Source of the DNA: a virus
Lineage: Duplodnaviria > Caudoviricetes
Virus record (IMG/VR): IMGVR_UViG_3300032006_000010
Coordinates: 1 to 54,395 of that record
Length of the DNA: 54,395 nucleotides
Reading direction: 5' to 3' (one strand)
Each line of letters opens with the position of its first letter. Within the stretch, counting starts at the first letter, position 1. This document shows, piece after piece, positions 1-54,395 of this stretch. A program made the position numbers and the translations under genes. A model generated the notes under the pieces. The model was not told the origin of the DNA. It saw only the letters and a program-made list of their open reading frames with translations, and searched no databases.

Positions 1-140
1 TAGTCTCAGTCCGGACCGTCGTCGTCTTGATATTTTCAAGGATTATGCATTACATCCTCATGTATCAGCAGACGGAGAACCATGCCTTGGTGGATTTTCA
101 CAACCTTGGAGTCAGTGTGTCAGTACAAATAATATTCCTT
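1..140. repeat. Terminal direct repeat, left copy (assembly circularisation overlap)
   Basis: 1-140 equals 54256-54395 except position 127 (a) vs 54382 (t), a synonymous ACA/ACT change. The repeat lies inside a continuous ORF, so it is an overlap and not a physical DTR. Confidence 0.95.
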
Positions 141-1249
141 CCCTAGTAAATGTAGCTCAAGCATTTCTTAATACTTGGACTCGTGGTGACCATTATTGGG
201 ATATAAATGGTTATTATAATAGCTGGAAGGCTGCTTATCCTGAAACTACTCATAGAAAAGAGTTTCCTTTTACTGAATGGTTAACACAAAGCTTCAAATG
301 GGACCATATGAAACGTAGAATAGGTATTGATGATAGAGCTAGATTATCATTCCGTGGTGCTTTCGAGTTTCCTAAGTTCTATTATAGTGAGGATTATAAG
401 GAAAAGAGACCAAAAGACCCGAATAAACATTGGAAGATGTTTGATTTATTCAATGGTGCTATGTTCTTTTATAGAACCAAGGAAGATACCGAGGATAAAT
501 TAAAAGAAACCCTTGTGAATCTATCAAAAATAGTAGGTGGCGCTCTTTGGAATATAAAAGAAAGCGTTGGAGCAGAAGTAGGAATTGAAACCAGACTTGT
601 AGATGGATTATTCGAAGATGTTCTTATGGAAAACGACTGGAGTAAATCTATTATAAAGGTTCCCGGTAGGGGTCCTAGGATAGAATATACTATAGCCTCC
701 GAGTTTAATGACCTTCATTATTGTTTAGACGGAGAAGCTAGAAAAAGAGCAGCTAATCTTGTAAACAATAACCCACTGACTTCTGATATGGTAAATGAAT
801 ATGCAAGAGCTATGAACCGTGCAGAACCTTGGGAATGTGGTGGATATTTAGAAAGGAATGATATTCTTGAATGTCTTTCCTATTATATGAGAAGGGGAAG
901 AACAAGAGCATACCCATATCTGCTTAGAGCCTTACGTAATATGATAAAGTTATTAGTAGGTTCGGATGTATGGAACAATGACCTCCTAATAGAAGGAGCT
1001 ACAGGTGTTAAATCTGCAGAAATTCTTTTAGAGGGTTTAATGATAATAAAGGATTTCACAGATGACGTAGATGAGTTCGATAGAGTCATTAGGAATCATT
1101 ATACTTATGAACTCTGCGATAGATATGAACAAATCCTTCGTAGACAAATCAAAGGAAGGATAACAGATGTCAAACGTAAGTACAGACCCATCATTCACAG
1201 TGCGACTACCGGAGCTGATAGTACAGAAAATCAATTATCTTTTGACTAG
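1..1249 (+). CDS. E2-like (ubiquitin-conjugating fold) protein, 3' portion; full gene is 53909-54255 joined to 1-1249, 531 aa
   Basis: Frame 2 is open from base 2 and in frame with the listed 308..1249 ORF. It encodes DYALHPHVSADGEPCLGGF (HPH at 53-61, Cys codon 83-85), matching the E2 signature HPN-x7-C-L. The long C-terminal region is not recognised. Confidence 0.8.
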   Translation, partial: SLSPDRRRLDIFKDYALHPHVSADGEPCLGGFSQPWSQCVSTNNIPSLVNVAQAFLNTWTRGDHYWDINGYYNSWKAAYPETTHRKEFPFTEWLTQSFKWDHMKRRIGIDDRARLSFRGAFEFPKFYYSEDYKEKRPKDPNKHWKMFDLFNGAMFFYRTKEDTEDKLKETLVNLSKIVGGALWNIKESVGAEVGIETRLVDGLFEDVLMENDWSKSIIKVPGRGPRIEYTIASEFNDLHYCLDGEARKRAANLVNNNPLTSDMVNEYARAMNRAEPWECGGYLERNDILECLSYYMRRGRTRAYPYLLRALRNMIKLLVGSDVWNNDLLIEGATGVKSAEILLEGLMIIKDFTDDVDEFDRVIRNHYTYELCDRYEQILRRQIKGRITDVKRKYRPIIHSATTGADSTENQLSFD

Positions 1250-1910: not shown

Positions 1911-2292
1911 AGTGTATGGATGACCTTACTACTCAATTCTTAGATAGTGAGTTATCTTATCATGAATACCTTGAAAAAGTTAGGGACTTCTGCCCAGACA
2001 TAGACCCGTTTATGTACATGGATGACCCTAAAAATTGGACAGCTTAAAAGCTGACACATCATCTCAGAGACCCCATCCACAGCTACAATACAACTCTGAG
2101 ATACAGCTAAGGGTTCAGTTGTTTGTTTTAACAGTGAAAACTGGGGTTGGCAAACAGTGAATTAACACCACCTAGGACTAAGCCGTAATGGCTTCCCTAC
2201 GGAATGCTGAATCCTAAGATTTGAGGCATTTGGAGAGTGCAGACAGCCGCCAATGTAAGTCCTCAACTTTAACCGTTAACTAAGGAGGTAAA

Positions 2293-2550
2293 ATGACTAC
2301 TAAAACCTTACAGACTTTTAAGGAAATTCTAGACGATATGACAGAAGATGATTCAAATATAAAATATGAAATAACAAAAAATTCTTTAGACCTAAAAGTA
2401 AATGGCTGGACATATTCAATAGAAAAGAGCAGATGTTTAACAAGAGAAGATAGATGGGATTGGCTTGCTCACATGTCTGAAAAGAACTGGATTGATAACT
2501 ATACATTCATGGTAACATTTTTAAAGGCATGTAGAACTTGGGGTATATAA
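2293..2550 (+). CDS. Hypothetical protein (85 aa)
   Basis: Strong SD TAAGGAGGT; WLAHMSEKNW motif; TAATG overlap with the next ORF. Confidence 0.75.
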   Translation: MTTKTLQTFKEILDDMTEDDSNIKYEITKNSLDLKVNGWTYSIEKSRCLTREDRWDWLAHMSEKNWIDNYTFMVTFLKACRTWGI

Positions 2551-2705
2551 TGGAAAAATGGTCAAACGAACGTATCCATTATCAACCAAAAATAAGAAAA
2601 ATGGCTATTGAACATGCAATGGAGCGATACCGAGAATCGTTCTGGTATTATAGGCTCCTTAAGAAACTTCGTTTAATTAAGAGAGGAGACAACGATGAGA
2701 CATGA
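2550..2705 (+). CDS. Small basic hypothetical protein (51 aa, MEKWSNERIH...), not in ORF track
   Basis: Starts in a TAATG overlap, fills the gap and overlaps the ThiF start. Confidence 0.55.
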   Translation: MEKWSNERIHYQPKIRKMAIEHAMERYRESFWYYRLLKKLRLIKRGDNDET

Positions 2706-3480
2706 TTCTAGATTCTTAAGAAATAAAGACCTTATTGAACAAAGAAAACTTGACATGATAGGTATAGTAGGTCTTGGAGGCATAGGTTCGTTTCTTATAC
2801 AGTCGTTAGCAATAATGGGCTGGAGAGACTTATTCGGCTGGGATAATGATGTAATTGAAGCACATAATCTTAGTTCTACAGCATATCCTGTAAAATCAGT
2901 AGGCGATGATAAAAAAGACGCAGCCAAAGAGCTCTTTGCTAATTATAGTGAAGGGTGGCAAGGAATAGCAACAGCTGGAAATTTTACTGATGAGAATATA
3001 CCCTATCCAAAACAGATAGTATGTACCGATAATATGGAATCAAGAAAACTAGTGTATGAAAAATGGAAGAAACAATTAGAAAAGAGACATCCACGTGAGT
3101 TATTTAAGGATTCATTCTTTATAGACTTACGTATGGGTGCAACTAGTGTTGAGATGATAACCGTAACTCCAAATAATGATAATTATATGGACCATTGGTT
3201 ACCATCACACGACATTCCTCCCGCACCGTGTTCAATGAAACACACAGTATTTGCAGCTCAATATATTGCAGCACTTGGGATTTCTCAGGTGTATAATTTA
3301 GTTGCAGGTCTTGCATTTTATGACTACATTTGGACCAGCCTGAACCCAAATATGGTCAAATTTGGTACTTTAATAATTCCTAAAACAGAGGAGGTATTAA
3401 ATGATAGAAGTGAGGAAAGTAAGCACAGATTGGATGGCGATGCCATCCGGACTGACTTATCTCATTATCGGTCAGCCTAA
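2695..3480 (+). CDS. ThiF/MoeB/E1-family adenylyltransferase (E1-like activating enzyme)
   Basis: N-terminal RFLRN; GIVGLGGIGS nucleotide-binding loop; WDNDVIEAHNL; CTDNMESR; DLRMG; candidate catalytic Cys179 in PPAPC; SD GAGGAG. Confidence 0.92.
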   Translation: MRHDSRFLRNKDLIEQRKLDMIGIVGLGGIGSFLIQSLAIMGWRDLFGWDNDVIEAHNLSSTAYPVKSVGDDKKDAAKELFANYSEGWQGIATAGNFTDENIPYPKQIVCTDNMESRKLVYEKWKKQLEKRHPRELFKDSFFIDLRMGATSVEMITVTPNNDNYMDHWLPSHDIPPAPCSMKHTVFAAQYIAALGISQVYNLVAGLAFYDYIWTSLNPNMVKFGTLIIPKTEEVLNDRSEESKHRLDGDAIRTDLSHYRSA

Positions 3481-48419: not shown

Positions 48420-49934
48420 CTATAATGTCATCCAATCAAGTATCTTTCTAGCTTTATTTACCCCGCTTGGGTCAATGTATTTCTTTTGCCTACAAGCCTT
48501 AATTCCATCCATTGCGTAATATACAGCATCCAGTATATCATCATGTTTACCCCTTGGATAGGATAAAAACTCCTGTTGGGCTATAATATCCTCTGGTCTG
48601 AAGTAAAACTCTCCTCTAGCAAGTGGGGCTACCAAGGAAAGCAGTCTCTCGGACTTTCTTTGTCTCGGTTTTATGCCCTTTTCCAGCCCGGGTATATACA
48701 GGGACTGTTCAAGCATCATTTTTCGTACGCTAGCCCGGAGAGCTTCTTGGTAGCCCACCGTCTCTATTTTCATCCTTTTTGGATGATACTTCTTAAAAAT
48801 CTTGACGATAGTCTCTGGCTGTATTGCCGGGTCAATCTTATCACGGAGAATATCGATAATATACTTATTATTATCATTGTCAACACCCACAGTAGCAACA
48901 GCAAAGAAATCGCTACGACTAGATAGACTACTAGCAGGGTCAATGCCGCAATAGATGTCAACAGGCTTACGCTCCTCCTCGCCATCAATTGTCCGAACGA
49001 GAAGATTCTGACCGTCGACTCTCTTATAACTGTAATGATGAAGTTTAATGTATTCCGGTTTAAAGGGTGCATTGTCTGGAGATTGCGCTTCATTCATATA
49101 CTCCTGATAAAAACCATTTAGATTGCCAACAGATTCAAATTCTGCCTTAATCTGTAGAATTCTCTCCTTAGGAAAACGCTCATGCCATATACTACGACCT
49201 TTTTCATCGTATATAGCATACCAAAGAACATTCCATGCCGGAGATTCCCTAGCCCAATATAAGAAACAATCTTCAGAGATGACGGTTCCAATAAGTATTA
49301 TTCGACCATCATCGGACAAAGACGGGATAACGGCTTCGGTCATCCATTTTCTATTCTTAGCCCTGCCTTCCTGAGTGGAGGCATTTAATTCTGACTCATA
49401 ATCATCTACGATAATGAGATTAGGACGAGTATCACCTTCAAGAAACCCACGAACACGCTGACCAGTACCGACAGCCACAATACGTGCCCCATTAGCCAGA
49501 ACAATATCATTATTAGTCCATCTTTTTGCCGTCGTGGGTCCATAATCACCAAACATCGCCTTGAAATTCGCACTATTCTGGAGATGATACTTGATTCTAG
49601 AGAGGAAGTTAATGCTTTGTGACTGTGATTCCGAGATAATAACGATAAAAAGGTCCCTGTCTGATGGTTTAAAAGCGATTTTGTGGAGGGGTAGTATTAA
49701 GGAGGTCACTGTACTCTTCGCTGTCCCCCTAGGGGCTGCGATAAGTACTCGCTTTATAGTGTCATCAGACAGGGATTTATAAATTTCGTAGTGAAAAGGT
49801 GGTACATCACGGCTTAAAGCCGTAGGAAACATGGTTTTTCCGAATAAACCAATATTTTTCCTTAATTTCTTTAGGGCATTCTCTTCAGCCCATCGAGATT
49901 CAAAATCTTCAGTCTGTTTCTTCTTCTTTACCAT
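48420..49934 (-). CDS. terL: Terminase large subunit
   Basis: Walker A APRGTAKST, Walker B IIVDD, FYQEYMN, nuclease GIDPA and HDDILDA; start moved to ATG 49934 after AAGGAG. Confidence 0.93.
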   Translation of the reverse strand: MVKKKKQTEDFESRWAEENALKKLRKNIGLFGKTMFPTALSRDVPPFHYEIYKSLSDDTIKRVLIAAPRGTAKSTVTSLILPLHKIAFKPSDRDLFIVIISESQSQSINFLSRIKYHLQNSANFKAMFGDYGPTTAKRWTNNDIVLANGARIVAVGTGQRVRGFLEGDTRPNLIIVDDYESELNASTQEGRAKNRKWMTEAVIPSLSDDGRIILIGTVISEDCFLYWARESPAWNVLWYAIYDEKGRSIWHERFPKERILQIKAEFESVGNLNGFYQEYMNEAQSPDNAPFKPEYIKLHHYSYKRVDGQNLLVRTIDGEEERKPVDIYCGIDPASSLSSRSDFFAVATVGVDNDNNKYIIDILRDKIDPAIQPETIVKIFKKYHPKRMKIETVGYQEALRASVRKMMLEQSLYIPGLEKGIKPRQRKSERLLSLVAPLARGEFYFRPEDIIAQQEFLSYPRGKHDDILDAVYYAMDGIKACRQKKYIDPSGVNKARKILDWMTL

Positions 49935-50691: not shown

Positions 50692-51215
50692 AAATCAGGG
50701 TATAATCCACCTCATAAAAGAAAAACTACCAGTTTTGTGCTCCTTACTTAAGTCACCCGTCATCTGCGGTGTCACCCCTTAATAATTAAATCAACTACTA
50801 AAAAAAGTAAAAAAACTTAAACCCAGTTTACAAAAAAAACAATAGCTATTATTTACTTTATCGCAGAAGCGTTAAGTTTCAATATAGATGCACTTAGGTG
50901 GTGGCACCTAGTTTTGTTCAAAAGCCATATATTAAGTAGGGTTGCAAATCCAACCAAAAATTACCGTAGAATGGGAGTACGTGGTATACATTGCACCGTA
51001 CCCGTGCGTTTTTCACGGCACGGGGGTCCCTGCCCAGTTGAAACAGAACCGCTGGTTCTATTCCATCTGGTCACCCCCATCCCGCACACCGCACGTGTAC
51101 TGGCGCCCAGCCCCTGCTAGCCACTGCGTGGCAGATACGTACCCTATGCCTTTAGGCATAGCTACGTAGCCATTGAGCAATAACCCCTCAACCTTTCACG
51201 AAAGGCATCAGTCTT

Positions 51216-51557
51216 ATGGCATCAAAGAAAGTATCGATACGAGTATCGAACACTTTCCGTGGCTCCGTAGACCGACACGGTGAGTTCGTTAGGGAAGAAG
51301 ACCGAAACGGTCGTTGGATTGCATCCAACAACCTGCGTATCATATCTGATACGTCGGCTTCTTTACCCGCCGTCCTCACTGCCAAGCGTATCACGTCACT
51401 TGTAAAGCAGAAGCCTGCTCTACAAGTAACTGATGGTACGGACTATCAGCTTACCAACAAGGTAGACCTTGATGGTGACGCTGAGCGTGGCTTAGACCCT
51501 GCTACCGCATGGTATTACGCCCCGCAAAGTCCTCCCGTTACGCTTGACATCGGCTAG
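51216..51557 (+). CDS. First gene of the early arm, hypothetical
   Basis: 113-aa ORF in a locally GC-rich region; GAAAGG upstream. Confidence 0.6.
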   Translation: MASKKVSIRVSNTFRGSVDRHGEFVREEDRNGRWIASNNLRIISDTSASLPAVLTAKRITSLVKQKPALQVTDGTDYQLTNKVDLDGDAERGLDPATAWYYAPQSPPVTLDIG

Positions 51558-51691
51558 GACACGGTAGTGCATTGCGTGCTATTGGCACGTACGCATTGCA
51601 TGCTCAAACCTGTGCTTCCCCCTACACACAGTAGGGGGGACACACACAGGTCTTATTTTATCACACCCGTGAAAGGAATCAGCAATAGCTG

Positions 51692-51787
51692 ATGTATTCA
51701 ATATTTCGTAATTTCAGTAAGCTATGGTACTGCATAGTGAGTCCGGATGGTAACCCAATCGACGTAGACAACCAGACCAAAGGTTAA
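51692..51787 (+). CDS. Possible 31-aa peptide (MYSIFRNFSKLW...)
   Basis: GAAAGGA SD separated from the ATG by the hairpin ATCAGC-AATA-GCTGAT. Confidence 0.3.
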   Translation: MYSIFRNFSKLWYCIVSPDGNPIDVDNQTKG

Positions 51788-51809
51788 CACAGTTGATTAA
51801 ATCCCAAAC

Positions 51810-52840
51810 AGTAAGAGAGTAGCCCCAGCCTTAAGCTGGGGCGCTCTCGTATTCGTTACTTGTAATGAGGTCACAATTAAGTAGCTTCTTTTGTGGTTGG
51901 TTGAGGTGCTGAGGTGCAAATCCTCACGTGTAATTACAAGTAAGTATTTATCAGTCTACAGCCCTAGACGTGGGGCGGTCGTCATGGCGGCTGGGAACTA
52001 CAAAATATGGTGGTGATGTTAACAAGACCGTTCCCAACGTAGGCTGATTCTTTATTTAACCGGGGGAAGAGCGTGGACAGATGATATGTCCTGTGTCAGC
52101 AAGCACTGAATCTTCCCCTTTTTATTTTATTTAGTGAACCAAATCTAAACAGTGGCTACTGATTTCTAGAATCACACGAGTGCACATCGTGCCGGCTGAC
52201 GAGGCTGGGTAGTCCAGAACTTTATTTATTTATTGGGTGTTCTATAGTTGCAAATATAGAGCATTTTAGCAGTGTGACTGAGTGCGTTCTCGAGTTGAGG
52301 CGTAAGGTACATTCCAAGGAAGTATGTTCCGCATCGAAGTAAGTACTTAGATGAACCGAATAAGTATCGGTGGGGTGGTCAGTTGGTAAAGTTGGTGTTT
52401 CCCTCGAGAAGGGGCACTAATTAGAAAAGAAGGATTCTTCTTGCTCTGTTTACAGGCGGCTGAAAGGCTAATCCTGTGACTATGTAGACTGGTAGCTAGC
52501 CTTAAGATGGGGCTCCAGTATCATTACATGCTATAGTAGCAGCATTGACGAGGTGTACGCCTAAAGCGGAACCCAGAGATGAACCAACGACAGTTGGGTA
52601 ATGAGTGCAGAGTATCTATACTATCTTCCAAAAACACGAGGTCCTTGTATCCTCGTCATTGCTACCAAATTTATACCAAGGCTGTGGTCCAAAGTCCTGA
52701 GAGACTAGTACGGATAAACTCAGAGAGACCTGAGAATTGGGCGAGTAGTGCACCTCCACCCTAATAACAAACTCCACGGCCTTAAATGGGGTAGTATGCT
52801 GATGTAAGTCTTCCAATGGATGCATTCAGTGTACTGCCAA
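51810..52840 (+). ncRNA. Tandem array of structured RNA modules or one large ncRNA, family unassigned
   Basis: No credible ORF; more than 10 consecutive stem-closed domains separated by T-rich linkers; mismatches read as G-U pairs on the + strand. Confidence 0.6.
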
Positions 52841-52862
52841 GATATCGTGAAAGGAGGCTAAA

Positions 52863-53591: not shown

Positions 53592-53619
53592 AACCACGTA
53601 GACGTACTAAGGAGACCAT

Positions 53620-53823
53620 ATGGCTAAAGTACTAGTACAGACCTTTGGTGGCGTTGTCAAGACAATGGAAGCTGAAAATCCTGCTGCATTAGCAGAGCAA
53701 TTAGGCTTGGCATTGGACAATTCCACAATTAACGTCAATGCTAAAGCGGCTGAAGCAACGACTACGTTGCGAGATGACGATTTCGTTGCATTTGTGACGG
53801 ATAAAGTCCAGTCGGGTAAGTAG
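53620..53823 (+). CDS. Ubiquitin-like beta-grasp protein (ThiS/MoaD/Ubl), C-terminus -VQSGK
   Basis: 67 aa; INVN...TTLRDDDFVAFV matches the ThiS/MoaD pattern xVN...L.DGD.V; penultimate Gly; SD TAAGGAG; directly upstream of the E2-like gene. Confidence 0.8.
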   Translation: MAKVLVQTFGGVVKTMEAENPAALAEQLGLALDNSTINVNAKAAEATTTLRDDDFVAFVTDKVQSGK

Positions 53824-53835
53824 GGACAAAGAGAT

Positions 53836-53895
53836 TCGGTTACTGGCGTGACTTTGGGAACGGAACTATTCCGACCTATGAGTTGCGCCATCCGA
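53836..53895 (+). promoter_or_regulatory. Long interrupted hairpin between Ubl and E2 genes
   Basis: TCGG/CCGA, TGGCGTGACT/AGTTGCGCCA, CGGAA-CTA-TTCCG; ends just before the E2 SD. Confidence 0.6.
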
Positions 53896-53908: not shown

Positions 53909-54395
53909 ATGTCTGAAGATAATCTATATAAAACAACCTTTGTTAAAAAGTGGCTAAAATCAAATATAAATTATCATAATCAAGTTCACATGTCGAATGA
54001 AGAATTGACTAATACAGCCCAACATTTTGTGGAAAAACTAGATATTCATGATTGTAGTATAAATCCCGGCTCATCTCATATGAATTTTAGAGTTCGTGTA
54101 GGTAGACCAAAGTTCAGGGGCAGTGGAAACTATATACTACCTAAACATTCTCTAGTTTTTAATACCTATGAACCTTCAAAGGTTAGAATCGTTATGGACG
54201 GTTCAATGGAGCCAGAATGGTGGGGAGACCATGAAGCATACATAATGGAAAGAAATAGTCTCAGTCCGGACCGTCGTCGTCTTGATATTTTCAAGGATTA
54301 TGCATTACATCCTCATGTATCAGCAGACGGAGAACCATGCCTTGGTGGATTTTCACAACCTTGGAGTCAGTGTGTCAGTACTAATAATATTCCTT
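53909..54395 (+). CDS. E2-like protein, 5' portion (continues across the junction), not in ORF track
   Basis: AAGGAG then ATG 53909 (MSEDNLYKTT...); open to the window end and includes HPHVSADGEPCL. Confidence 0.8.
   Translation, partial: MSEDNLYKTTFVKKWLKSNINYHNQVHMSNEELTNTAQHFVEKLDIHDCSINPGSSHMNFRVRVGRPKFRGSGNYILPKHSLVFNTYEPSKVRIVMDGSMEPEWWGDHEAYIMERNSLSPDRRRLDIFKDYALHPHVSADGEPCLGGFSQPWSQCVSTNNIP
54256..54395. repeat. Terminal direct repeat, right copy
   Basis: 139/140 identical to 1-140. Confidence 0.95.

Follow-up and report, generated by a model that had tools for sequence, protein, structure and literature searches.

To our knowledge, the ubiquitin-like conjugation systems described so far in bacteria (Bil, Bub and Type II CBASS) are all host defences against phages. 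The 54,395-nucleotide (nt) virus record IMGVR_UViG_3300032006_000010 from IMG/VR, analysed here over its full length (hereafter, the window), belongs instead to a tailed phage, and it encodes a ubiquitin-like protein (Ubl) of its own: a 67-residue precursor ending in Ser65-Gly66-Lys67, which is accompanied by genes for an E2-like protein, a JAMM/JAB metallopeptidase (hereafter, the JAB) and a ThiF-type E1. Gly66, rather than the terminal lysine, is very probably the reactive end of this Ubl, with Lys67 serving as a disposable cap.

Of the described systems, Bil (BilABCD) is the closest in function to the phage cassette, and it likewise encodes its Ubl, E2, JAB and E1 as individual genes of a single operon. 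BilA has a conserved end Gly that is followed by a short overhang in many members (2–9 residues in 12 of the homologues), and BilC cleaves BilA between Gly97 and Ala98, removing a single residue, and also deconjugates. The cassette nevertheless lacks two of the hallmarks of Bil: the E1 of Bil has tandem domains, whereas the phage enzyme has 261 residues and one ThiF domain, and Bil resides in bacterial defence islands, whereas the cassette is carried by a phage and recurs in 30 of 35 related viral loci. Moreover, the phage E2-like protein, at 531 residues, includes a large helical region, and the phage Ubl is a single β-grasp of 66 residues; profile searches of the PDB with the Ubl, the E2-like protein and the JAB gave no sequence-level match to the solved Bil chains.

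A second likeness is to Caldiarchaeum subterraneum. Its pro-ubiquitin carries a 9-residue propeptide after the end Gly and is refractory to its E1 until the JAMM enzyme Rpn11 cuts this off, after which the trimmed protein proceeds to an E2. The ubiquitin of C. subterraneum (6fj7) is among the structural matches of the phage Ubl model, and the JAB profile reaches a single solved chain, that of its Rpn11-like enzyme (6fjv_A), over the HxH...S..D stretch, albeit at E 0.78, which is far from significant. The system differs in being archaeal and cellular, in the Gly-Gly end and the 9-residue length of its propeptide, and in its RING-type E3. In eukaryotes, the last unit of polyubiquitin bears a one-residue cap, and UFM1, SUMO and NEDD8 are made with tails. 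These precursors resemble the phage Ubl and its relatives in that a short variable cap covers the reactive Gly and that units repeated head to tail are cut at Gly; indeed, two database relatives of the phage protein (P0076 and P0082) are di-Ubls that mimic polyubiquitin precursors. The eukaryotic processing enzymes differ in being mostly Cys proteases, and the phage protein differs in having Ser as its penultimate residue. The cap itself is therefore ordinary: with such maturation known in bacteria (Bil), archaea and eukaryotes, it adds a member but no new idea.

The Ubl open reading frame (ORF) is preceded by a Shine–Dalgarno-like AAGGAG (53609-53614), 5 nt 5' of its ATG, and its product ends ...FVTDKVQSGK, directly before a TAG stop codon. 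All 31 candidate proteins retrieved from databases were related to it at E ≤ 0.01 (49–97% identity; several have Tara-labelled sources), and further relatives are encoded in 35 viral loci; together with a confident AlphaFold2 model (see below), this establishes the ORF as a genuine gene rather than a product of chance. The SGK end is also found in two separate database clusters, P0001 (12 member sequences) and P0002 (3), so the Lys cap cannot be put down to an isolated error in sequencing.

To survey the C-terminus, the window protein was pooled with the products of 34 complete viral-locus genes and the 31 database proteins; 59 of these 66 sequences are in register, and they reduce to 45 unique sequences. 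Lys62, Val63, Ser65 and Gly66 are invariant in all 45, whereas 10 states are found at position 67 (stop in 13, Ser in 10, Cys in 7, Leu in 5, Lys and Gln in 3 each, and also Asn, Arg, Ile and Ala), giving an entropy of 2.78 bits against a mean of 0.75 for the body, in which only position 49 is as variable. This is the pattern foreseen in the first-pass annotation of this DNA, namely a conserved Gly followed by residues that vary. The tails after Gly66 are 0, 1, 2, 3, 9 or 24 residues long, those of 9 and 24 belonging to database relatives. The SG pair is kept in 34 of the 34 complete viral-locus genes, for which the tails are none (8), C (10), LA (7), LV (3), S (2), SK (2), N (1) and R (1); three pooled sequences have a one-residue insertion and still end in SG followed by Cys.

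The same boundary is evident in multimeric and in more distant forms. In P0076 and P0082, the two units meet precisely at the Gly and the second bears a one-residue cap, and P0100 comprises four Ubl units in tandem, each ending at the conserved Gly; no viral locus was found for P0082, and the one found for P0076 carries a mono-Ubl. A profile search over 1.84 billion representatives gave 37 matches, of which the 32 small proteins were read: in 31, a Gly terminates the fold, within SG, GG, AG, KG or EG, and only three of these 31 stop there, the remaining 28 carrying a tail (four end in SG plus Lys). As to the suggestion in the first-pass annotation that the SG end could keep the Ubl orthogonal to host ThiS/MoaD, Ser65 is invariant in the close family, while distant relatives end in GG, AG, KG or EG. 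Four of the five large matches (P0072, P0096, P0103 and P0106) were excluded as apparent artefacts of repeats or low complexity.

Read from the sequences, the abrupt transition from KVxSG to drift is the hallmark of a reactive end Gly from which a propeptide is cut away. It is because KVxSG is invariant up to Gly66, the tails are free and the di-Ubls are joined at the Gly that we assign the reactive end to Gly66 and regard Lys67 as disposable. Were there no processing at all, with the full-length Ubl active, or acting non-covalently, and its C-terminus merely unconstrained, some variability would be expected, as the C-termini of small proteins often drift; however, the drift begins exactly past KVxSG in 45 of the 45 sequences and nowhere earlier, the tandem forms are joined at that very Gly and intact E1, E2 and JAB genes lie alongside. 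Additionally, known E1s act on a free terminal Gly carboxylate. We regard the absence of processing as highly improbable.

Beyond Gly66, the tail changes readily between close relatives. Among 43 pairs with bodies at least 95% identical, 26 have unlike tails: the 66-residue body encoded at locus L010 is 100% identical to those of L009 and L012, and yet the tails are SK and LA, respectively, whereas a single base (TGA in L024, TTA in L019, L022 and L023) separates no tail from LV. The codon after Gly66 is a TGA stop in 8 of the 8 uncapped loci and TGT or TGC in 10 of the 10 with a Cys cap; TGA is one substitution away from either Cys codon, which points to recurrent switching between stop and Cys by single-base changes.

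These observations bear on the proposal, made in the first-pass annotation, that the cap provides a control switch, by which the Ubl would be stored inert and the activity of the JAB would be the timed trigger for conjugation. In the wider family, a cap is indeed more common than its absence (28 of the 31 distant relatives with an end Gly carry a tail), and the C. subterraneum precursor is inert until cut. Against this, 13 of the 45 unique close relatives are uncapped although the JAB is always kept, the identity and length of the cap differ between identical bodies, and one base change is enough to flip between cap and no cap; moreover, the Ubl and JAB genes lie in one co-directional cluster, so that separate timing is not evident. 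The proposal is weakened accordingly, and we judge a regulated licensing switch to be very unlikely. The cap looks like the product of neutral drift, tolerated because the trimming enzyme is always present, and not like a tuned device.

The putative trimming enzyme retains its active-site motif: Glu71, His100, His102, Ser110 and Asp113 (E...HxHx7SxxD) are invariant in 19 of the 19 JABs. It is kept in all 30 loci that are long enough to contain it, including those in which the Ubl is uncapped (8 of the 34 complete loci), from which it follows that its conserved function is not cap removal. That conserved job is most plausibly deconjugation, which would explain the retention of the JAB beside uncapped Ubls. 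The same retention could be taken to mean that the cap is removed by another activity, such as a host carboxypeptidase or an aminopeptidase-like enzyme, with the JAB acting as a deconjugating isopeptidase only; exopeptidases could certainly reach tails of one or two residues. The tails of 9 and 24 residues and the di-Ubl junctions, however, need an endopeptidase that cuts after Gly, as the JAMM enzymes of Bil and Caldiarchaeum do, and a peptidase with an intact motif is encoded two genes 3' of the Ubl in every long-enough locus. We consider trimming by a non-JAB activity to be unlikely, and favour the JAB as the enzyme that removes Lys67.

In PADLOC, the JAB gave only a chance-level DpdE row (E 0.053) and, in PHROGs, only families of unknown function. 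A predicted complex of JAB residues 1–175 with zinc and the Ubl scored 0.84/0.84/0.86, but an unrelated 64-residue control scored 0.79, and the prediction is not used as evidence. Longer relatives of the JAB, such as that of L005, carry a conserved C-terminal module as a fusion, and a 43-residue ORF that lies here directly after the JAB stop codon, in another frame, is similar to this module by eye; the short form of the JAB is also seen in L028, L029, L032 and L037.

The Ubl is predicted to fold as a ubiquitin-like β-grasp of the Ub/ThiS/MoaD superfamily. The AlphaFold2 model, built from a 32-row alignment, has a mean predicted local distance difference test score (pLDDT) of 89.2 and the order strand, strand, helix, strand, strand (strands 2–7, 13–18, 35–39 and 55–60; helix 21–28), with residues 61–67 forming a floppy tail (mean pLDDT 60). 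Foldseek returned nine matches at E ≤ 0.001, with ubiquitin (2zcb_B, E 5e-4) and TtuB first, and SUMO2 and the Caldiarchaeum ubiquitin also represented. With VIA-align, TtuB was the top match (Z 8.2, root-mean-square deviation (rmsd) 1.6, 59 residues aligned), followed by MoaD (Z 7.8), SAMP1 (Z 7.7) and CysO (Z 7.6) and, lower down, by ISG15 (Z 6.9) and BubA (Z 6.5). The alignment profile found chance-level rows only in the PDB, PADLOC and PHROGs gave no match, and there were no longer, fused relatives at E ≤ 0.001, the last being weak evidence. The first-pass annotation had described a Ubl ORF ending SGK-stop, on which a JAB and an E1 would act. Our reading of the sequence agrees, giving 67 residues on the plus strand; the β-grasp model and its matches to ubiquitin, TtuB, MoaD and SAMP1 bear out the identity of the protein, and both enzymes are its neighbours, with intact catalytic residues and an E2-like protein in addition.

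The E1 exceeds the Pfam cut-off for ThiF (46.2 bits, cut-off 28.1), but with one match only, to residues 22–122; a second domain is absent. The nucleotide-binding GxGGxG motif and the acidic residues are kept: Gly26, Gly28, Gly29, Gly31, Asp50, Asp52, Asn58, Lys73, Asp112, Arg117, Asp144, Arg146, Pro178 and Cys179 are invariant in 16 of the 16 E1s, including that of the distant viral contig L038. Matches in the PDB, to PaaA and the catalytic subunit of the NEDD8 E1 (E about 1e-3), are confined to the N-terminal part; in PHROGs, only families of unknown function were hit. The PADLOC models of the Cap2 type (E1–E2) match residues 19–79 only (E 8.4e-8), thereby touching the nucleotide-binding stretch. 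Type II CBASS (Cap2/Cap3) resembles the predicted pathway of the cassette in its Ubl-type conjugation; it differs in that an E2–E1 fusion acts on a CD-NTase, whereas the phage has one gene for its E2, in which HPH...C is retained, and another for its E1. Our look for a CD-NTase covered the 10 neighbouring ORFs only. Bub (6E/DUF6527) also combines Ubl-type conjugation with maturation by a peptidase (BubCD cleaves BubAB after G229), and both BubA (Z 6.5) and BubB (Z 4.1) were encountered as structural matches; it is distinguished by Ubl–E2 and peptidase–E1 fusions and by an E1 without a catalytic Cys, whereas the phage genes are separate and Cys179 is invariant.

The window is a complete virus record in which positions 1-140 repeat 54256-54395 (140 bases, 99% identical); the genome is therefore circularly permuted or terminally redundant as assembled, and the gene for the E2-like protein is split across the window ends. 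With the 140-nt repeat counted once, this protein has 531 residues, and its continuation at the start of the window is 80% identical over 415 residues to residues 117–531 of P0066, itself of 531 residues. The E2-like signature, HP[NH] followed by a catalytic Cys, is present, and His134, Pro135, His136, Pro143, Cys144, Leu145, Gly146, Gly147 and Trp152 are invariant across 32 aligned rows. Against the PDB, the profile lands on the active-site stretch of human UBE2W (2mt6_A, E 0.051), with the HPH, Cys and Trp residues aligned. The fold searches used a model of P0066 (pLDDT 84.3), which is 80% identical to the window protein. In the VIA search, which is independent of Foldseek, E2, UEV or RWD proteins, judged by title, make up 38 of the 50 listed rows, and these cover model residues from about 4 to 219; the best Z values are 5.5–5.6 (e.g. 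3bzh_A, rmsd 4.9, 128 residues aligned), and BubB is also among the matches. No family was assigned to the protein by Pfam, PHROG or PADLOC. The C-terminal region of ~300 residues is mostly helical, and a search of the ESM Atlas with it gave no usable match. Taking these results together, we read the protein as a putative E2-like domain with a mostly helical extension of ~300 residues; the fold evidence by itself is moderate. The end of its gene overlaps the start of the JAB gene in another frame (1167-1249, 83 nt), and overlaps of 71–104 nt recur in close relatives; as the C-terminal motif of the E2-like protein and the N-terminus of the JAB are both conserved, this is a dual-coding stretch.

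By analogy with the related systems, a complete route can be proposed. The JAB would cut the peptide bond between Gly66 and Lys67; the E1, judging from its conserved residues, would then adenylate Gly66 and probably load the Ubl onto Cys179, from where it would be handed to the Cys that is invariant in the large E2-like protein and finally transferred to a target, which the helical C-terminal half of the latter could, speculatively, select. The same JAB would most likely also take the Ubl off its targets. On balance, we think it probable, although by no means assured, that the full chain operates, with the JAB trimming Lys67, the E1 adenylating Gly66 and the E2-like Cys accepting the Ubl.

A number of observations weigh against this scheme. 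Four of the 31 database relatives (P0013, P0015, P0026 and P0031) lack the SG end, although they look truncated or frameshifted. The JAB scores 20.2 bits (E 5.7e-4) against Pfam Prok-JAB (PF14464), below the gathering cut-off of 25 (its homologue in L005 scores 21.1 bits), and the Ubl scores 16.6 bits (E 0.012) against ThiS (PF02597), below the cut-off of 22.5. The assignment of the E2 combines a motif with a profile match of marginal significance (E 0.051) and structural scores that are no more than middling (Z ≤ 5.6); Foldseek, used with the 531-residue P0066 model against the PDB, gave no match at E ≤ 0.001, and E2 enzymes are among its weak rows only. Lastly, the closest folds to the Ubl are TtuB (Z 8.2), MoaD (Z 7.8) and CysO (Z 7.6), which would suit a sulfur carrier of the ThiS/MoaD/TtuB/CysO kind: once uncapped, Gly66 would be adenylated by the E1 and become a thiocarboxylate for thiolation, and the protein would not be a tag.

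The likeness to TtuB, SAMP1, MoaD and CysO (Z 7.6–8.2 in all) extends to small size and an E1 of the small ThiF/MoeB type, and a role in sulfur transfer is further favoured by the weak ThiS match. JAMM enzymes act on some proteins of this type, and they uncap sulfur carriers elsewhere (CysO/Mec+ and QbsE/QbsD), which also counts for such a role. However, systems of this kind are linked to sulfur-transfer enzymes and have no E2-like protein, whereas in all 30 long-enough phage loci a gene for an E2-like protein with an invariant HPH...C separates those of the Ubl and the JAB, and no sulfurtransferase, rhodanese or TtuA/MoaE/ThiG-like family was detected among the 10 neighbouring ORFs scanned (those only). 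Moreover, TtuB and SAMP also modify proteins, such that the fold alone does not decide. We therefore give the sulfur carrier a small chance, and prefer conjugation to a target as the fate of the uncapped Ubl.

The novelty lies in the phage-borne cassette, which has a distinct architecture and odd proportions: the Ubl and E1 are unusually small and the E2 is unusually large, and this arrangement is conserved over dozens of related viral contigs. By tblastn, neither the Ubl nor P0066, standing in for the E2, had a match in 50,697 GenBank phage records, and no description of a phage-encoded Ubl/E1/E2/JAB cassette was found in open-access papers and bioRxiv; the nearest is a preprint on Asgard viruses, with E1-like genes only. 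We tentatively suggest, as a serious possibility, that an uncultured lineage of tailed phages has its own Ubl conjugation cascade as a conserved component of the early/replication block, with which it tags host or phage proteins during infection. Unlike Bil, Bub or CBASS in architecture, this cascade would combine a capped 66-residue Ubl and a JAMM enzyme for maturation and deconjugation with a minimal E1 of the ThiF type and a giant E2 that includes a target-binding region. If true, ubiquitin-type conjugation would here be serving a bacterial virus rather than opposing one, which raises the question of what the phage would gain from the tagging, be it counter-defence, the take-over of host proteins or virion maturation. 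If it conjugates, the cassette would also offer a compact, self-contained system in which to study E1–E2 chemistry, and the natural tails of 0 to 24 residues on near-identical bodies provide a panel of substrates with which to probe the specificity of the JAB.

The coordinates of the cassette and of the features around it are collected in Table 1. That the Ubl belongs to a tailed phage is evident from the structural genes in the window, namely those for the large terminase (E 5.8e-94), the portal (E 1.6e-80) and the major head protein (E 2.8e-23). Across the joined ends, the cassette reads, from its first gene, Ubl, E2-like protein, JAMM/JAB, a variable small gene and the ThiF-type E1, and 3' of the E1 lie replication genes (AAA_24, a primase/DnaB-like helicase and others). 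The Ubl, the E2 motif, the JAMM motif and the E1 are found together in 30 of the 35 viral loci, the other five being cut by contig ends. In the distant contig L038, a Ubl (ending GG plus RK) is followed by a 547-residue protein (L038 6288-7931), placed where the E2 would be expected, and then by a JAB and an E1; the N-terminal half of the 547-residue protein, read by eye, is repeat-rich.

Table 1. Positions in the window of the Ubl gene, its C-terminal codons and the other features of the cassette
Feature	Position	Strand	Remarks
Ubl precursor gene	53620..53823	+	67 residues, ATG start, β-grasp
Mature Ubl, codons 1-66	53620-53817	+	C-terminal Ser65-Gly66
Ser65 codon TCG	53812-53814	+	Read from printed sequence
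Gly66 codon GGT	53815-53817	+	Read from printed sequence
Lys67 cap codon AAG	53818-53820	+	Read from printed sequence
Ubl stop codon TAG	53821-53823	+	
Stable RNA hairpin, Ubl-E2 spacer (85 nt)	53836..53895	+	-28.2 kcal/mol, z -3.2
E2-like protein, N-terminal 162 codons	53909..54395	+	ORF open at 3' end; HPH...PCLGG, candidate catalytic Cys
E2-like protein, continuation	1..1249	+	Frame of ORF 2..1249
JAMM/JAB metallopeptidase, 247 residues	1167..1910	+	Predicted cap-removing and deconjugating enzyme
43-residue ORF, other frame, right after JAB stop	1916..2047	+	By-eye match to JAB C-terminal module
85-residue ORF, variable slot JAB-E1	2293..2550	+	PHROGs: unknown-function family
ThiF/MoeB-type E1, 261 residues, single adenylation domain	2695..3480	+	Candidate catalytic Cys179

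The spacer between the Ubl and E2 genes holds a predicted hairpin, for which no terminator-like site is listed at 53836-53895. Hairpins also occur just 3' of the Ubl stop codon in the four other loci that were folded (L005, L010, L019 and L029; z -2.9 to -4.8); they occupy the same place but are unlike in sequence, and most lack a T-run. The hairpin may be an element for mRNA stability or partial termination that sets the ratio of Ubl to enzymes. The slot between the JAB and E1 genes (1910-2695) is occupied here by the 85-residue ORF and in most relatives by one of 145 residues (L005 8989-9426), to which the former has no similarity by BLASTP; the gene in this slot could be a variable adaptor or a target-related gene.

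An Rfam scan of the whole window gave no family; a separate BFVD search gave one viral protein at E 6.7e-4 with a TM-score below 0.3, which is uninformative. ARAGORN reports a tRNA-Leu(TAA) at 49781-49858 (+), inside the terminase ORF of the opposite strand; this call may be a false positive. A stretch of ~2 kb (about 50700-52860) that separates the structural from the early block contains short ORFs only, and could serve in regulation or as an origin.

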